Both the position numbers and the translations under genes were made by a program. A DNA stretch of 64,000 nt from an uncultured Eubacteriales bacterium (GTDB taxonomy: Bacteria; Bacillota; Clostridia; TANB77; CAG-508). Positions 17,858-56,214 of this stretch are shown here, in pieces. Position 1 is the first letter of the stretch. Each line of letters starts with the position of its first letter. Under the pieces are notes generated by a model that was not told where the DNA came from, did not search any database, and saw nothing but the letters and a program-made list of their open reading frames with translations. The stretch is taken from the NCBI GenBank assembly GCA_905203305.1, contig CAJKVH010000003.1, positions 20,240 to 84,239 of the forward strand, given 5' to 3'.

Positions 17858-17952
17858 TTCCCATTTGGGGACGGAGATTTTCGGGGATTTTTCCATTTAA
17901 GATATGTCCCCAGATGGGAATTCCCCGAAAAACTCCGTCCCCAAATGGGAAA
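17858..17952. repeat. GC-rich palindromic intergenic repeat, copy 1 (composite: two outer inverted half-sites plus an internal partial half-site)
   Basis: TCCCATTTGGGGACGGAGATTTTCGGGGA ... TCCCCGAAAAACTCCGTCCCCAAATGGGA. The half-sites are reverse complements with one mismatch. Confidence 0.9.
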
Positions 17953-17977
17953 AAGGGAATGAAAGGAGAAAACAATT

Positions 17978-18826
17978 ATGAAATTAGGTTTAGCTTTATC
18001 AGGTGGTGGGATAAGAGGAGCTGTTCATATAGGTGTGTTAAAGGCATTAGAAGAAAATAATATAAAAGTAGATATTATAGGTGGAACAAGTTCAGGAAGT
18101 CTAGTTGCAGCTCTTTATGCAATGGGATATAGTCCAGTACATATATATCAATTATTTAAAAGATATGGAAAAACAATTACAAATATGGGTGTAGGGCCAA
18201 TTATAAATGGAATAGGAGGATATATTGTAAATAAAAAGTTTAATATATCTGGAATAAGTGAAGGAAAGGAAATTGAAGAACTATATAATGAATTTGCATA
18301 TAAGAAAAAAATATATAAAATGTCTGATATGAAAATGCCAATAGTTATCCCCACAATTGATATAAAAAGTGGAAAAGAATATATTTTTACATCTAAAAAA
18401 ACAAAAGATTCTAAATATATAAATGATATATCAGTTGGAGGAGCTGTAAGAGCAAGTAGTAGTTTTCCCGCAGTATTTTGCCCGTATGAATATAAAAATT
18501 ACTTGTTTTTAGATGGTGGAACACTAGATAATATACCTGTTAAAGAAGTATTTAAATGTGGAGCAGATAAAGTAATTAGTGTGAAATTTCAGCCAATCAA
18601 TATAGATAAAGAAAGTAATGTTATGGACATAGTTTTTAAAACAATAGATATAATGGGAAATAAAATAATAGAAAAAGATGTTGACAAAAGTGATTATATA
18701 TTAAATATACCAACAGATGATAAAATAGGATTTTTAGATAGTAAACAGATAGAAAAATGCTATAAATGCGGATATGAAGAAACAATAAAAAATATAGGTA
18801 AAATTCACAAAATTTTGTCAGAATAA
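17978..18826 (+). CDS. Patatin-like phospholipase family protein
   Basis: GGGxRG oxyanion motif (LSGGGIRGAVHIG), GTSSGS nucleophile elbow and a DGG motif. RBS AAAGGAG. Confidence 0.88.
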   Translation: MKLGLALSGGGIRGAVHIGVLKALEENNIKVDIIGGTSSGSLVAALYAMGYSPVHIYQLFKRYGKTITNMGVGPIINGIGGYIVNKKFNISGISEGKEIEELYNEFAYKKKIYKMSDMKMPIVIPTIDIKSGKEYIFTSKKTKDSKYINDISVGGAVRASSSFPAVFCPYEYKNYLFLDGGTLDNIPVKEVFKCGADKVISVKFQPINIDKESNVMDIVFKTIDIMGNKIIEKDVDKSDYILNIPTDDKIGFLDSKQIEKCYKCGYEETIKNIGKIHKILSE

Positions 18827-18853
18827 TATAATAAAATAAAAAAGGAGAAAAAA

Positions 18854-19995
18854 ATGAATACATATTATTTTGACAATGGAGCAACTACAAAAGTAAAGCA
18901 AGAAGTGGTAAATGAAATGATACCATACTTTAGTGAAAATTATGGAAATCCGTCATCTGTTTATGGAATAGCAAGAGATGCAAAAAAGGCAATAGAAGAA
19001 GCAAGAGAAAAAGTAGCAAATTTAATTGGAGCTAAGAAACAAGAAATATATTTTGTTGGCTGTGGTTCAGAAGCAGATAATACTGCATTAAAAGGAATTG
19101 CGTATGAAAAGCAAAAAGAAGGAAATCATATAATAACATCCAAAATAGAGCATCCAGCAATTTTAGAAACATGTAAATTCTTAGAAAAACAAGGATTTGA
19201 AATAACATATTTAAATGTAGATAAAAATGGATTTGTTGACTTAAATGAACTAAGGAGAAGTATAACAAGTAAAACTATATTAATAAGCATAATGTTTGCA
19301 AACAATGAAATAGGAACAATTGAACCAATAGAAGACATCGCGAAAATTGCAAAAGAAAACAAAATAATTTTTCATACAGATGCAGTTCAAGCAGTGCGGA
19401 AATGTAAAAATAAATGTACATGATATGGGAATTGATATGTTATCCTTATCAGGACATAAATTCTATGGACCAAAGGGTATAGGAGCTCTATATGTAAAAG
19501 AAAATATTAAATTTACAAAAATCATGAATGGAGGGCATCAAGAAAGAGATAAAAGAGCAGGAACAGAAAACACAGCTGGAATAGTAGGACTTGGGAAAGC
19601 ATCAGAGCTTGCAAACAATGAATTAGAAGAACATATAAAAAAGATGAAAGAACTGAGAAATTACTATGTAAATGAAATTTTAAGTAAAATTCCAAATGTA
19701 AAAGTAAATGGTGCAATAAATGCAAGACTGCCTGGAAATAGCAATATATCATTTGAAGGAGTAAATGGAAACGATTTATTATTAGAACTAGATAATGTTC
19801 GGAATATGTGCTTCAAGTGGATCGGCATGTAGCTCAAAAGATCCAGCACCATCACATGTTTTAAAAGCAATAGGATTAAGTGAGGATTTGATAAAAGGAG
19901 CTTTAAGAATTACATTTGGAGAATTTAATACAAAAGAAGAGGTTGACTATTTAATAGAAAATTTAGAAAAAAGCATAAGAAAATTAAGAAAGTAG
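18854..19995 (+). pseudogene. Cysteine desulfurase (NifS/IscS family) read as three ORF pieces because of two apparent single-C insertions, at 19397 and 19800
   Basis: Pieces 18854..19423, 19380..19832 and 19795..19995 together align along the full length of NifS. This includes the AVQAV|G(N/K)... and HKFYGPKG motifs and the SSGSAC active-site cysteine. Removing the C at 19397 (gtgCgga) and the C at 19800 (gttCgga) restores one 380-aa frame. Confidence 0.8.
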
Positions 19996-20060
19996 GAATT
20001 CCCATTTGGGGACGGAGATTTTAGGGGAATTCCCCTAAAATCTCCGTCCCCAAATGGGAA
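19996..20060. repeat. GC-rich palindromic intergenic repeat, copy 2 (near-perfect 63-bp palindrome)
   Basis: CCCATTTGGGGACGGAGATTTTAGGGGAATTCCCCTAAAATCTCCGTCCCCAAATGGG. Confidence 0.92.
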
Positions 20061-20082
20061 AATGGAAAGAAAGGAAAAGCAG

Positions 20083-55064: not shown

Positions 55065-55135
55065 GATTGCAACTTAAAACAGGTGCATAATTAAAAGACC
55101 TTTTAGTATAGAATACTTGCAAGGAGGCTGCAAAT

Positions 55136-55336
55136 ATGAACAAACTAAGAATACCACAAAATCATAGCGGAGTTAGTAAAACTCTTAGATTACCAGAGAA
55201 TATAGTAGATGATGTGCAAAACCTTGCAAATCTTAAAAATTTATCTTTTAATAAAATTGTAATTTCTTTACTTGAGTTTGGATTAAGTAATTTAGATGAA
55301 AAAGATTATGAAAAATTAAAAAAATTGCGTGAATAA
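55136..55336 (+). CDS. Small hypothetical protein (66 aa), possibly ribbon-helix-helix-like
   Basis: RBS AAGGAGG and a clean short ORF. Followed by a bidirectional terminator. Confidence 0.55.
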   Translation: MNKLRIPQNHSGVSKTLRLPENIVDDVQNLANLKNLSFNKIVISLLEFGLSNLDEKDYEKLKKLRE

Positions 55337-55364
55337 AAGGGTCTCATAAAAAAGACCCTTTTAT
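55335..55364. terminator. Bidirectional rho-independent terminator
   Basis: AAGGGTCT / AGACCCTT stem flanked by A and T runs, between convergent genes. Confidence 0.8.
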
Positions 55365-56090
55365 TCTAAAACAATTTTTTTAGCACGAGATACATCTTCA
55401 TCTGTTGCTTCTCTAACACCTTCTAATTTATAGGTGTCTCCATATTCAATCCATTTATATTTTCCCATAGTATGATATGGTAAAAATTCAACTTTTTGTA
55501 CAGATTTTAATGAAACTATAAAATCTTTAAGTTTTAGTAAATCATTTTCATCATCTGTATATCCAGGAACTAAAACTTGCCTAATCCACATTGGCTTGCC
55601 AATATCACTCAAATATTTTATAAAGTTTAATTCTTTTTCATTAGAAAAGCCAACTAAATCTTCGCACTTTTTAGGATCAATATGTTTAACATCCATTAAA
55701 AATAAATCAGTTAAATCAATTAATTCTTTCATTTTATCTGTTAAAGCAACCATTCCGAGATGTATCAATACAGGTTTGAATGCCTTTAGCTTTAAGTTTT
55801 TTAAAAAGTTCTATTAAAAACTCATACTGTAAAAGAGGTTCACCACCAGAACAGGTAACGCCACCACTTTTTATATAATTTTTATATCTTAAAATTTGTT
55901 CAAAAATTTCATTTACAGAATGATATTCTCCGCTATTAATATCCCATGTATCTCTATTTTGACAATATTTGCATCTTAAGGCACATCCTTGCAAAAAGAT
56001 TACATATCTTATTCCAGGGCCATCTAATGTTCCAAAAGATTCAAAAGAATGTACTTTAGCATAATATTTTAAATCATCTTTATTTTTCAT
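55361..56090 (-). pseudogene. pflA: Pyruvate formate-lyase activating enzyme (radical SAM), split by an apparent +1 insertion. The extra base is a C on the coding (minus) strand, which is plus-strand position 55757.
   Basis: The N-terminal ORF has CxxxCxxC ([10 protein letters not shown]) and the glycine-rich SGGE motif. The C-terminal ORF continues the PflA alignment (...VMLDxKxxDPxxxxxLxGxSN...). The junction reads tctCggaatg on the minus strand. Confidence 0.85.
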
Positions 56091-56120
56091 ATAATATAAA
56101 AATCCTTTCTAAGTATTTGT

Positions 56121-56214
56121 TTCCCATTTGGGGACGGAGTTTTTATGGGAAATCCCGCAAAAACTCCGTCCCCAAATGGGAATTCCTCAAAAAAGGACTG
56201 TCCCCAAATGGGGA
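56121..56214. repeat. GC-rich palindromic repeat, copy 6 (a full palindrome plus an extra direct half-site) between pflB and pflA
   Basis: CCCATTTGGGGACGGAGTTTTTATGGGAAATCCCGCAAAAACTCCGTCCCCAAATGGG, then ...GGACTGTCCCCAAATGGGGA. Confidence 0.9.

Follow-up and report, generated by a model that had tools for sequence, protein, structure and literature searches.

The described systems closest to the repeats analysed here are the REPIN-RAYT systems of Pseudomonas and Enterobacteria (Bertels and Rainey 2011, PMC3116915; E. coli TnpA-REP, PDB entry 4ER8) and the TIRYT genes. The inverted repeats that flank TIRYT genes share the core GGGGWSAS and are also found dispersed, in dimers or clusters (Di Nocera et al. 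2013, PMC3733652). TIRYTs have been equated with transposase subclass 2.1, made up of long proteins with a C-terminal HTH (Bac_DnaA_C, HTH_23 or HTH_28-like), and the same study reports that it found no REP-like sequences beside their genes (Quentin et al. 2018, PMC6006769). In the CGTC REPs, the tag is followed by a stem of 8-9 bp that begins with AT, then by a loop of 4-5 nt and a CCA tail; these REPs were reported to lack a transposase of their own (Di Nocera et al. 2013, PMC3733652).

The stretch of DNA analysed here, called the window, is 64 kb long and contains a family of intergenic repeats, which the initial annotation had likened to REP, BOX or Correia-type miniature elements. This is supported and can be narrowed: with a probability of about 80%, they are REP/REPIN-like miniature repeats of the RAYT-type (Y1, HUH) class, more precisely of the TIRYT or TnpA-Y1 subclass 2.1 type, and a RAYT is encoded in sister species. 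That they do not belong to a described family also holds within our searches: the family is absent from Rfam, has no match in plasmid or phage collections, and a full-text literature search for the motif gave nothing relevant. The class of element is already described (PMC3733652, PMC6006769), while the particular sequence family is new as far as searched.

The repeat unit and its occurrence

Six palindromic sites had been proposed, and all six are present, their positions agreeing to within a few bases with those first given (Table 1). The motif CCCATTTGGGG is matched 13 times in the window with at most one mismatch (shuffled sequences give 0.23 matches on average and never more than 2), and GGGGACGG nine times against 0.03 expected. 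A scan of the window with the unit HMM finds full or partial units at the six sites only. Each of them is intergenic, as had been claimed; with 88.4% of the window coding, the chance of six out of six is p ~2e-6. The elements contain 44-49% GC rather than the roughly 55% first estimated, compared with 24.5% for other intergenic DNA.

The basic module of the repeats, called the unit here, is 31 bp long and reads TTCCCATTTGGGGACGGAG(A/T)TTTT(C/A)GGGGAA. Two units disposed tail-to-tail form a 62-bp palindrome; direct tandems and partial copies also occur. The half-sites noted earlier do form a palindrome when paired in inverted orientation, but the half-site is this 31-bp unit, which is also present in direct tandem, so that the palindrome is one arrangement of the unit and not the unit itself. 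A single unit is without self-structure, folding like its shuffles (z -0.04 and -0.41), and carries two 10-bp palindromic boxes, CCCATTTGGG and GGGAATTCCC.

There are two generations of units, a young type A (copies 1, 2, 4 and 6) and an old type B, which makes up copies 3 and 5 and part of copy 6. Among themselves, the eight type-A units are 84-100% identical (mean 92%). For type B, sister species have orthologous hairpins downstream of pflB and rpoD. The family extends beyond this region, as units are also found on other contigs. Four further sites (L048, L051/L056, L053 and L065) are located on low-GC metagenome contigs, at least some of them labelled human gut, which have nothing else in common with the window; the count so far is six sites in 64 kb and four on metagenome contigs.

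Table 1. Units and dimers at the six sites, in window coordinates
Feature	Position	Strand	Support
Copy 1, left type-A unit (TTCCCATTTGGGGACGGAGATTTTCGGGGAT)	17858..17888	+	unit HMM, E=5.6e-11
Copy 1, inner degenerate/partial unit (TTCCCATCTGGGGACATATC...)	17889..17920	-	partial HMM match, 17906-17920
Copy 1, right type-A unit	17921..17951	-	HMM, E=1.7e-11
Copy 2, two type-A units tail-to-tail, perfect 62-bp palindrome, centre GGGGAATTCCCC	19999..20060	.	arms 100% complementary
Copy 3, two direct type-B units (ATCCCCATTTGGGGACGGTCCTTTTCTGGGGAA, TTCCCCATTTGGGGACGTATATC...)	22504..22568	-	HMM matches
Copy 4, type-A dimer between lemA and dnaG	48490..48551	.	unit HMM and sister-species loci
Copy 5, old type-B dimer	51608..51672	.	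type-B HMM match
Copy 6, type-A dimer between pflB and pflA	56121..56182	.	unit HMM, fold
Copy 6, extra type-B unit (TTCCCCATTTGGGGACAGTCCTTTTTTGAGGAA)	56183..56215	-	type-B HMM, E=0.0022

Structure of the individual copies

The type-A dimers of copies 1, 2, 4 and 6 are predicted to fold as RNA with energies of -50 to -68 kcal/mol (z -8 to -11). The very stable hairpins proposed by the initial annotation are found in these four copies, but not in copy 3, where the fold is not significant (z -1.2). When eight distinct sequences from four sites are aligned, 96.6% of the cells are paired across copies, so the secondary structure is conserved; four base pairs have changes on both sides. With copies also present outside this region, neither of the outcomes that the initial annotation had named as refuting its reading is observed. 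Intrinsic terminators can be discarded for these long hairpins, which lack a U-tract and run into the purine-rich sequence of a ribosome-binding site. A terminator scan flags only the small 5-bp CCCATTTGGG stem within the units.

In copy 1, the left and right units pair into a hairpin of -65 kcal/mol (fold z -8.2). This copy is located downstream of an ordinary terminator (17812-17848) and begins 54 nt past the upstream stop codon, not within a few bp of it as had been stated. Copy 2 sits just upstream of the yitT ribosome-binding site and folds with -57.4 kcal/mol as RNA (z -10.7) and -35.6 kcal/mol as DNA; six short-read contigs begin within it, marking assembly breaks. Copy 3 occupies the gap that follows the stop codon at 22499, up to the ribosome-binding site of a gene whose start is at 22590. 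Copy 5 (RNA -29.8 kcal/mol, z -4.3) directly follows the rpoD stop codon, ahead of the mscS ribosome-binding site. Earlier regarded as diverged, it does not derive from the main type by decay, but belongs to the older type-B subtype with orthologues in sister species: relatives have type-B hairpins at this site (L073, L075 and L076) or ordinary terminators (L067 and L070).

The central 14 nt of copy 6 are exactly inverted between strains. At the pflB-pflA site, the type-A dimer is present in the window species only, while the type-B hairpin is common to sister species, where it is the only element and measures 34-38 bp; in L070 it has decayed. Comparison with L070, L073, L075, L076 and L078 indicates that the extra type-B unit of copy 6 is a remnant of this ancestral hairpin after pflB.

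All six sites are fixed among strains, and there is no direct sign of ongoing mobility: presence/absence polymorphism, put forward earlier as a possible mark of mobility, is found at none of them among 3-10 strains. On the metagenome contigs, L051 and L056 represent a single site and differ there by an indel of some 32 bp, close to the length of one unit. No units were found across 21 kb of synteny in L067-72.

The transposase cassette in sister species

In sister species with ~80-86% DNA identity to the window, a gene for a 256-residue Y1 transposase is located between lemA and dnaG, the position of copy 4. The cognate RAYT or IS200-like tyrosine transposase that the initial annotation had proposed to look for is thus found at the orthologous site in sister species. 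The complete cassette, consisting of a unit array, the transposase gene and an inverted unit array, is present in L077, L078, L080 and L082. In L077 and L078, whose RpoD is 95% identical to that of the window and whose DNA is about 82-84% identical, four to six direct units are disposed to the left of the gene and five inverted units to the right. These have the sequence CTCTTTTGGTGACGG(G/A)GAATTTTTGGGAC, clearly related to the window units.

When the window is compared with the cassette loci, homology resumes at 48517-48518, that is, from the right-hand unit of copy 4 onwards, while L070 has a clean empty site. No RAYT is encoded in the window, nor at the lemA-dnaG site in any of the ten retrieved contigs of the window species. 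As the sister species have the cassette at the site of copy 4 and the window is without the transposase gene, copy 4 is, on this comparison, the scar of a RAYT cassette, the gene being gone at its ancestral site. The 62-bp dimer has the architecture of the cassette minus the gene.

The association of unit and transposase extends to other relatives. A RAYT with inverted GGGGACGG units is present in each of L079, L080, L082-84 and L104; in L079 and L104 it occupies a second site, other than lemA-dnaG, and the L104 units have a 17-nt head, TTCCCATTTGGGGACGG, in common with the window units. More distant transposase relatives are flanked by the same GGGGAC-type core. In L107, GGGGACGTTTCGTTTGTCAT is found on both sides of the transposase gene, and in L012, an alphaproteobacterial MAG of another phylum (58% GC), a RAYT homologue lies between inverted CCCATTTGGGGACGGAGTAAAA. 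Among the retrieved loci, the Y1/HUH transposase gene is the only one consistently flanked by units. Units are also dispersed away from the gene, at positions 355-519 of L077 and 13118-13195 of L078; together with copies 1-6 of the window, they occur as singles, dimers or clusters.

Predicted structure of the transposase

The best NCBIfam match of the 256-residue protein is NF047646, REP-associated tyrosine transposase (E 8e-20, 71 bits, the curated cut-off being 80). Its IS200 score is only 16 bits, and Pfam Y1_Tnp matches with 49 bits. The HUH motif (NHVHIV) and the tyrosine motif (RYVHRNP), containing His60, His62 and Tyr119, are invariant in 43 homologues. The AlphaFold model has a pLDDT of 87, and the top Foldseek match is 4ER8, TnpA-REP bound to a REP hairpin (E 2.4e-8, TM 0.72), despite a sequence identity of only ~20%, followed by the TnpA proteins of IS608 and ISDra2. 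By its motifs, profile matches and predicted fold, the protein qualifies as a Y1/HUH transposase of RAYT type. A helical C-terminal region of about 115 residues is predicted with confidence; it has no Pfam HTH match, the best match being weak, to a TrpR-like chain (E 0.26).

Comparison with the TIRYT and REPIN-RAYT systems

The likeness to TIRYTs, or "TIRtrons", lies in three features. The RAYT-like Y1 transposase of the sister species is longer than classical RAYTs (256 residues, with the C-terminal extension), the inverted repeats that flank it are not themselves hairpins and have a core close to GGGG[AT][CG]A[CG], and the repeats also occur dispersed, singly, in dimers and in clusters. The core in most units, GGGGACGG, departs from GGGGWSAS in one position, matching seven of eight. 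L053, L008 and the extra unit of copy 6 contain an exact match, GGGGACAG, and L109 carries GGGGTCAG. Other differences are that the flanks are arrays of two to six direct units instead of one long inverted repeat, that the gene is gone at its ancestral site in the window species, and that the host, a gut bacterium of low GC content, is apparently a spore-forming Firmicute; PMC3733652 mentions neither Firmicutes nor Clostridia. The repeats plainly adjoin the gene here, unlike the subclass 2.1 genes of PMC6006769, for which none were reported.

As in REPIN-RAYT systems, a pair of short inverted repeats folds into a hairpin of some 60-100 nt, and the copies are intergenic and sequence-homogeneous within the genome. 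The transposase gene is usually single-copy, repeat-flanked, in a stable neighbourhood and can be lost in some lineages, and the N-terminal domain of the sister-species protein is closest in fold to 4ER8. However, a classical REP is an imperfect palindrome with a GTAG head, whereas the units described here do not fold on themselves and have no GTAG, and the protein has low identity to 4ER8 and scores below the NCBIfam cut-off. To our knowledge, transposition has not been demonstrated for the TIRYT or subclass 2.1 RAYT class.

Alternative explanations

The repeats could instead act primarily at the RNA level, as selected intercistronic or 3'-end hairpins (3' exonuclease stabilisers, partial terminators or processing sites), repetition then reflecting function and not mobility. 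Five of the six sites are located between co-directional genes, 1-30 nt from the next ribosome-binding site or start codon, and are therefore probably transcribed. Their predicted RNA stability is very high, and E. coli REPs stabilise upstream mRNA. The type-B hairpins right after the pflB and rpoD stop codons have been kept, stems intact, in several sister species, the differences between L073 and L075 leave the stem intact, and the rpoD-mscS element stands where L067 and L070 have ordinary intrinsic terminators. However, symmetric changes in a palindrome can also come from template switching or arm-to-arm conversion without selection on RNA, and DNA-level processes of this kind are indicated by the centre of copy 6, which is exactly inverted between strains. 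Nor does such a role fit the missing U-tract, the canonical terminator upstream of copy 1, the non-significant fold of copy 3, the divergent promoter region around copy 4 or the decay of the pfl hairpin in L070, and it leaves the same units flanking a transposase gene unexplained. We consider a primary RNA function unlikely; putative roles as 3' stabiliser or terminator are at best secondary.

Other explanations are much less probable. Copies near gene starts, the two palindromic boxes of the unit and a C-terminal extension that in RAYT relatives may be an HTH (PMC6006769; the TrpR-like match above) would suit operator sites of a DNA-binding regulator or nucleoid protein, the palindrome being the candidate binding site of a regulon. 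The downstream genes (patatin, yitT, an unknown gene, dnaG, mscS and pflA) are functionally unrelated, sister species that have retained these genes lack most of the sites at the orthologous positions, and a perfect 62-bp palindrome and tandem arrays of three to six units are atypical of operators, making this very improbable. Hardly more can be said for a MITE of the Correia, RUP or BOX kind that stems from a DDE-type insertion sequence and is moved in trans by its transposase; we rate this slightly lower still. It would account for short, palindromic, dispersed intergenic copies with indels of about one unit, but copies 1, 2, 4 and 6 and the L051 copy show no visible target-site duplication at their ends, and neither the window nor any retrieved locus has a DDE transposase or an insertion sequence with matching ends. 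Apart from serine recombinases that belong to unrelated elements, the window encodes no recombinase, and the consistently unit-flanked gene encodes a Y1/HUH transposase. That the repeats are degenerate or orphan CRISPR repeats, which the initial annotation had correctly dismissed, has a negligible likelihood: the 31-bp length and partial dyad symmetry are reminiscent of CRISPR repeats, but the units abut without spacers in both orientations and are scattered among housekeeping genes, no Cas protein is found among the window ORFs scanned against Pfam, and an Rfam scan of the window at gathering thresholds matched a tRNA only.

Proposed mechanism

If the repeats are RAYT-associated, as we favour, the transposase would, by analogy with IS200/IS605 and E. 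coli TnpA-REP, recognise and cut the dimer hairpin in single-stranded DNA at the replication fork; cutting would lead to dimers being copied to new intergenic sites. The old subtype B is present at sites common with the sister species, the young subtype A spread later, and the ancestral lemA-dnaG cassette has been reduced to one dimer, copy 4. Any activity now would need a RAYT elsewhere in the genome. The copies that survive are located where they are tolerated, in the gap from a stop codon or terminator to the following ribosome-binding site, and some, for instance after pflB and rpoD, may be co-opted as mRNA hairpins.

It is possible, though doubtful, that the family constitutes a REPIN-like population in a Firmicute, associated with the long RAYT class (subclass 2.1 or TIRYT) and with a unit that is not a hairpin. 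The mobile substrate would then be the unit dimer, or the C-terminal domain would read the GGGGACGG box in double-stranded unit arrays, a mode of recognition unlike that of E. coli TnpA-REP. The repeat population of the window species may have outlived the loss of the transposase at the ancestral site, and would thereby provide a natural test case for REPIN population decay or co-option, the conserved pflB and rpoD hairpins being an example.

Relation to other repeat families

E. coli BIMEs and pneumococcal BOX elements are modular and intergenic, with variable numbers of units in direct or alternating orientation, and may affect mRNA stability; no transposase is known for BOX. The repeats described here are similar in having short units of variable number and orientation between genes, but have no sequence relationship to either. 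CGTC-tagged REPs, such as Neisseria dRS3 and Rickettsia RPE-4/6, were rejected as an identity: CGTC is included in the core CTCCGTCCCC, but is followed only by CCCAAATGGG, with a stem of 3-4 bp where 8-9 bp are required. The reverse strand of the unit reads ...CTC-CGTC-CCCAAATGGGAA, and the GGGAA/TTCCC ends are reminiscent of dRS3.

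Repeat sites in the window

All six palindromic sites reported in the initial annotation (copies 1–6) are present, as seen on checking the sequence at each of them. The motif CCCATTTGGGG, allowing at most one mismatch, has 13 matches in the window, where 0.23 are expected from shuffled sequences, while GGGGACGG is matched nine times against an expectation of 0.03. A profile search of the window places full or partial units at the six sites only, and a search for weaker copies of the second unit type described below (type B) found none outside them. The copies were also said to be intergenic, which holds for all six, with 88.4% of the window coding (p ~2e-6); they occupy the space that separates a stop codon or terminator from the next ribosome-binding site. 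The simplest explanation for this placement is that they are tolerated there, the genome being tightly packed. The copies are islands of raised GC content, as claimed, with values of 44–49% compared to 24.5% for the other intergenic DNA, rather than the 55% given before. Scanning the whole window with Rfam at the gathering threshold returned tRNA only and no family for the repeats.

Unit anatomy and folding

The basic element of the repeat is a 31-bp unit, TTCCCATTTGGGGACGGAG(A/T)TTTT(C/A)GGGGAA, rather than a palindrome. Two such units, arranged tail-to-tail, form a 62-bp palindromic dimer in copies 2, 4 and 6; an extra unit is present in copies 1 and 6, and copy 3 is made up of two direct units. 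Other contigs contain head-to-tail tandems, three to four units long in L048 and two units long in L065. A lone unit folds no better than shuffled sequence and copy 3 forms no significant hairpin when compared with shuffles. The palindrome of copy 2 is perfect, with predicted folding energies of -35.6 kcal/mol as DNA and -57.4 kcal/mol as RNA (z about -10.5).

The units are of two types. Type A, TTCCCATTTGGGGACGGAG.TTTT.GGGGAA, is represented by eight full units in copies 1, 2, 4 and 6, with pairwise identities of 84–100%. Type B, TCCCCATTTGGGGAC(G/A)GTCCTTTT, forms copies 3 and 5 as well as the extra unit of copy 6. When nine type-A dimer sequences (eight of them distinct, from four sites plus strain variants) are aligned, 96.6% of the positions stay paired and four pairs are altered on both sides, so the secondary structure that the initial annotation attributed to the family is conserved among the aligned type-A copies.

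A transposase cassette in sister species

The PflB, DnaG and 504-amino acid proteins encoded in the window are found unchanged on many metagenome contigs, which are themselves 99.6% identical to the window where measured (L040). Identical proteins are also encoded in MAGs GCA_964314105.1 and GCA_902472135.1. RpoD relatives with 86–98% identity define a group of sister species, in which the gene order is the same and the DNA is about 76–86% identical. In one of these species (contigs L077 and L078; RpoD 95% identical), a gene for a protein of 256 amino acids is located between lemA and dnaG, at the exact site of copy 4. The protein matches the Pfam family Y1_Tnp; its best NCBIfam family is "REP-associated tyrosine transposase" (RAYT; 71 bits, E 8e-20, with a cut-off of 80), and the IS200 family scores only 16 bits. 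It contains an HUH motif and the tyrosine motif RYVHRNP, both of which are invariant among 43 homologues. An AlphaFold model of a homologue (pLDDT 87) is most similar to PDB entry 4ER8 (E 2.4e-8, TM 0.72), the E. coli TnpA-REP protein bound to a REP hairpin, followed by the IS608, ISDra2 and IS200 transposases. The carboxy-terminal region is helical in the model; it has no significant sequence match, and comparison of its 122 amino acids with Pfam at E values up to 10 revealed no credible domain. From sequence and modelled structure, the gene is predicted to encode a RAYT-type transposase.

On its left side, the gene in L077 and L078 is flanked by four to six direct units and on its right side by five units in the opposite orientation. 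These units, CTCTTTTGGTGACGG(G/A)GAATTTTTGGGAC, have a period of about 41 bp and, judged by sequence, appear plainly related to the window unit. The same cassette of a RAYT gene and inverted units occupies the lemA–dnaG site in L080 and L082–84, with species-specific unit variants. In L079 and L104 it is located at a second site, adjoining a gene for a sigma factor of the sporulation type; its opposite neighbour in L079 is queA. The units of L104 have a 17-nt head, TTCCCATTTGGGGACGG, in common with those of the window; look-ups from the homologues P0121–P0125 and from the window DnaG found no RAYT flanked by exact type-A units, L104 being the nearest. Further afield, a RAYT homologue lies between inverted CCCATTTGGGGACGGAGTAAAA in L012 (an alphaproteobacterial MAG with 58% GC), and GGGGACGTTTCGTTTGTCAT is present on both sides of a RAYT-relative gene in L107 (an IMG/VR contig). 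Taken with the sister-species cassettes, these flanks indicate that a GGGGAC-type core travels with this transposase type across phyla. A cognate RAYT or IS200-like transposase, proposed in the initial annotation as something to look for, is thus found in sister species, as a RAYT-type gene flanked by related units at the site of copy 4; tblastn of the sister-species RAYT against the window gave no match.

Copy 4 as a scar

When cassette-bearing loci are compared to the window, the alignment starts again at 48517–48518 with the right-hand unit of copy 4 and runs on into the conserved dnaG leader. In a different sister species (L070), the site between lemA and dnaG is cleanly empty. In L076, which has the same RpoD as L077 and L078, the RAYT gene is truncated at its amino-terminal end (positions 7603–8021 of that contig); just 140 codons of its C-terminal part remain, the HUH motif is missing, and the gene is thus in decay within that species. 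All ten retrieved contigs of the window's species keep the copy 4 dimer, and none of the ten has a RAYT gene there. For these reasons copy 4 is best read, from sequence comparison, as the scar of a transposase cassette, in which the gene has been lost and a left and a right unit remain. A left plus a right unit is also the architecture of the canonical 62-bp dimer, in agreement with what the REPIN model expects of non-autonomous derivatives (PMC3116915).

Next to this site, upstream of dnaG, lies a block of about 55 nt, AAAAAAGAGGGAATTATGTAAAATACGTCGAATAATATATTATGG, nearly invariant across species with coding DNA 76–86% identical. It contains a Shine-Dalgarno-like GAGGG followed by an ATG–TAA start-stop pair and is possibly a conserved element of the dnaG promoter or leader.

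Old and young layers

Several sister species have type-B hairpins at orthologous positions. One, GGGGACGGTTCTTTTCG/CGAAAAGAACCGTCCCC, immediately follows the stop codon of pflB in L073, L076 and L078; at this position L075 has a variant with an intact stem and L070 a decayed relic. After rpoD, type-B hairpins are found in L073, L075 and L076, and ordinary terminators in L067 and L070. These hairpins represent an old layer, to which copies 3 and 5 and the extra unit of copy 6 also belong. The type-A dimer between pflB and pflA, adjoining an old unit, occurs only in the window's species, and no units were found in 21 kb of synteny in L067–72, sister species without a cassette in the region; type A is therefore the younger expansion.

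Within the window's species, all six sites are fixed among strains and variation is confined to the palindrome centres. Copy 4 in L089 contains symmetric double changes. The central 14 nt of copy 6 (56145–56158) are exactly inverted between strains, GCGGGATTTCCCAT versus ATGGGAAATCCCGC (L040 and L043 versus L041), and a third allele is present in L044 and L045. Such changes are typical of DNA-level hairpin or template-switch processes.

Spread beyond the region

An exact 18-mer scan of metagenome contigs gave five low-GC matches, L048, L051, L053, L056 and L065, at least some of which are labelled human gut. The element is the sole sequence that they have in common with the window. L053 was considered as an orthologue of the copy 1 site and rejected, tblastx aligning the element alone. 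L051 and L056 represent a single site, with an indel between them that, at about 32 bp, is close to one unit; there are therefore four further repeat sites, and the family is not confined to the region in which it was first noticed. Among 185,579 species genomes scanned for exact matches to a 17-mer, no low-GC genome had the family, from which it follows that the window's species is absent or masked in that collection. The 39 matches to the 17-mer are mostly single chance ones, with a few true GGGGACGGAG-type repeats in other phyla (L012, L015, L039 and L008). The 18-mer had no match in viral contigs, nor did blastn of one copy find any among plasmids and phages.

Six independent short-read assemblies of the species (L098–L103) begin a contig within the copy 2 palindrome (20003–20039), and L103 additionally ends within copy 3. 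These contig starts agree with the sequence being palindromic or present in multiple copies, and assemblies of the species are fragmented by the repeats.

Two of the contigs have features of their own. In L065, the left part (1–2700), with genes for RecN and a SpoIVB-like protein, is higher in GC than the right part (2750–3714), which is low in GC and has a gene for a FabD-like protein. The parts meet at the two repeat units, and the contig may be an assembly chimera created there. In L008, from a Coprococcus sp. MAG, a 22-bp hairpin, GGGGACGGAGGTACCTGTCCCC, recurs about every 64 bp in arrays (2534–3293 and 7179–7324) that face in opposite directions on either side of a segment of about 540 bp; it represents a further GGGGAC-type repeat family in a Firmicute.

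Proposed mechanism and comparison with known systems

The loci display the unit architecture, its pairing with RAYT in relatives, a scar, and gain and loss between species. By analogy with the IS200/IS605 transposases and E. coli TnpA-REP, we infer that RAYT would act on the hairpin formed by the dimer in single-stranded DNA, and that this action would spread dimers. Since a single unit forms no hairpin, either the dimer would be the substrate or, putatively, the carboxy-terminal extension reads the GGGGACGG box. Hairpins after pflB and rpoD have been retained across species, which would allow for a co-opted function in mRNA stability. As other explanations, a CRISPR remnant, a DDE-type MITE, an operator regulon and intrinsic terminators were each considered and rejected; in terminator scans no copy has the appearance of an intrinsic terminator. 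The initial interpretation as REP-like miniature elements is supported by the sister-species cassettes, which pair related units with a RAYT-type gene.

The closest described class is TIRYT, or subclass 2.1, into which the present family fits with small departures. TIRYT genes are RAYT-like and flanked by inverted repeats sharing GGGGWSAS, and further copies of these repeats are scattered as dimers and clusters (Di Nocera et al., PMC3733652). Quentin et al. (PMC6006769) equate TIRYT with TnpA-Y1 subclass 2.1, whose long proteins have an HTH at the C-terminus, and their systematic survey reports no REP-like sequences beside subclass 2.1 genes. "Group 1" RAYTs have been noted in Clostridia, with flanking 16-mers that are only weakly repeated (PMC5581495). 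In contrast to TIRYT, the core of the present family is GGGGACGG, its flanks are unit arrays instead of one long inverted repeat, and its host is apparently a Firmicute. It would work like REPIN-RAYT systems. Unlike classical REPs, the unit does not fold by itself with a GTAG head, and although it contains CGTC, it falls outside the definition of CGTC REPs. Literature searches found no paper that describes the repeat sequence, and a full-text search for the motif returned unrelated primer or sequence strings only.

An unexplained palindromic repeat thus becomes a concrete repeat-plus-transposase pairing, in what is apparently an uncultured, low-GC, spore-forming bacterium of human-gut metagenomes, and the poorly characterised long RAYT class (subclass 2.1/TIRYT) gains a clear dispersed repeat family. 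The link from repeat to transposase is clean; it involves no new principle. The series within one genus, from intact cassette through truncated gene and scar to empty site, suits the study of repeat gain, homogenisation, loss and co-option. In practice, the palindromes break short-read assemblies of the species. They should be masked by gene callers and in terminator prediction.

Other features of the window

Beside the intact pflB, which is identical on 23 contigs, pflA is split into two open reading frames of 118 and 130–135 amino acids. The split is present in the window and in six of six retrieved contigs of the species (L040–L045), while in sister species the gene is intact (242–247 amino acids). 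Either a fixed frameshift, making pflA a pseudogene, or a recoding event could account for the split. A class-V aminotransferase is likewise encoded by two overlapping frames (189 and 150 amino acids), also split in other strains.

Positions of repeat copies and other features in the window
Feature	Position	Location or remark
Copy 1	~17858	
Copy 2	~19999	
Copy 3	~22504	
Copy 4	~48490	lemA–dnaG
Copy 5	~51608	
Copy 6	~56121	
Three giant surface proteins	1343–16156	consecutive
Class-V aminotransferase	18854–19832	
RhuM-family protein	26418–27410	
Raised GC (0.35), reversed skew	28–30 kb	
Large serine recombinase	30931–32487	
AAAAAAGAGGGAATTATGTAAAATACGTCGAATAATATATTATGG block	48556–48610	upstream of dnaG
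pflA	55361–56090	minus strand
Strain-variable mobile element	58627–62707	adjoining tRNA gene
tRNA gene	58627–58697	
Resolvase fragments	59132–59605 and 59871–60953	mobile element by tRNA
TnpV	60957–61319	mobile element by tRNA
NikA-like protein	61427–61798	mobile element by tRNA

The content of the region adjoining the tRNA gene differs in some strains. The large serine recombinase, with Resolvase, Recombinase and Zn-ribbon domains, and the RhuM-family protein point to another integrated element. The three surface proteins are 1459, 1681 and 1713 amino acids long and contain SpaA/SdrD-B-type Ig-like domains.
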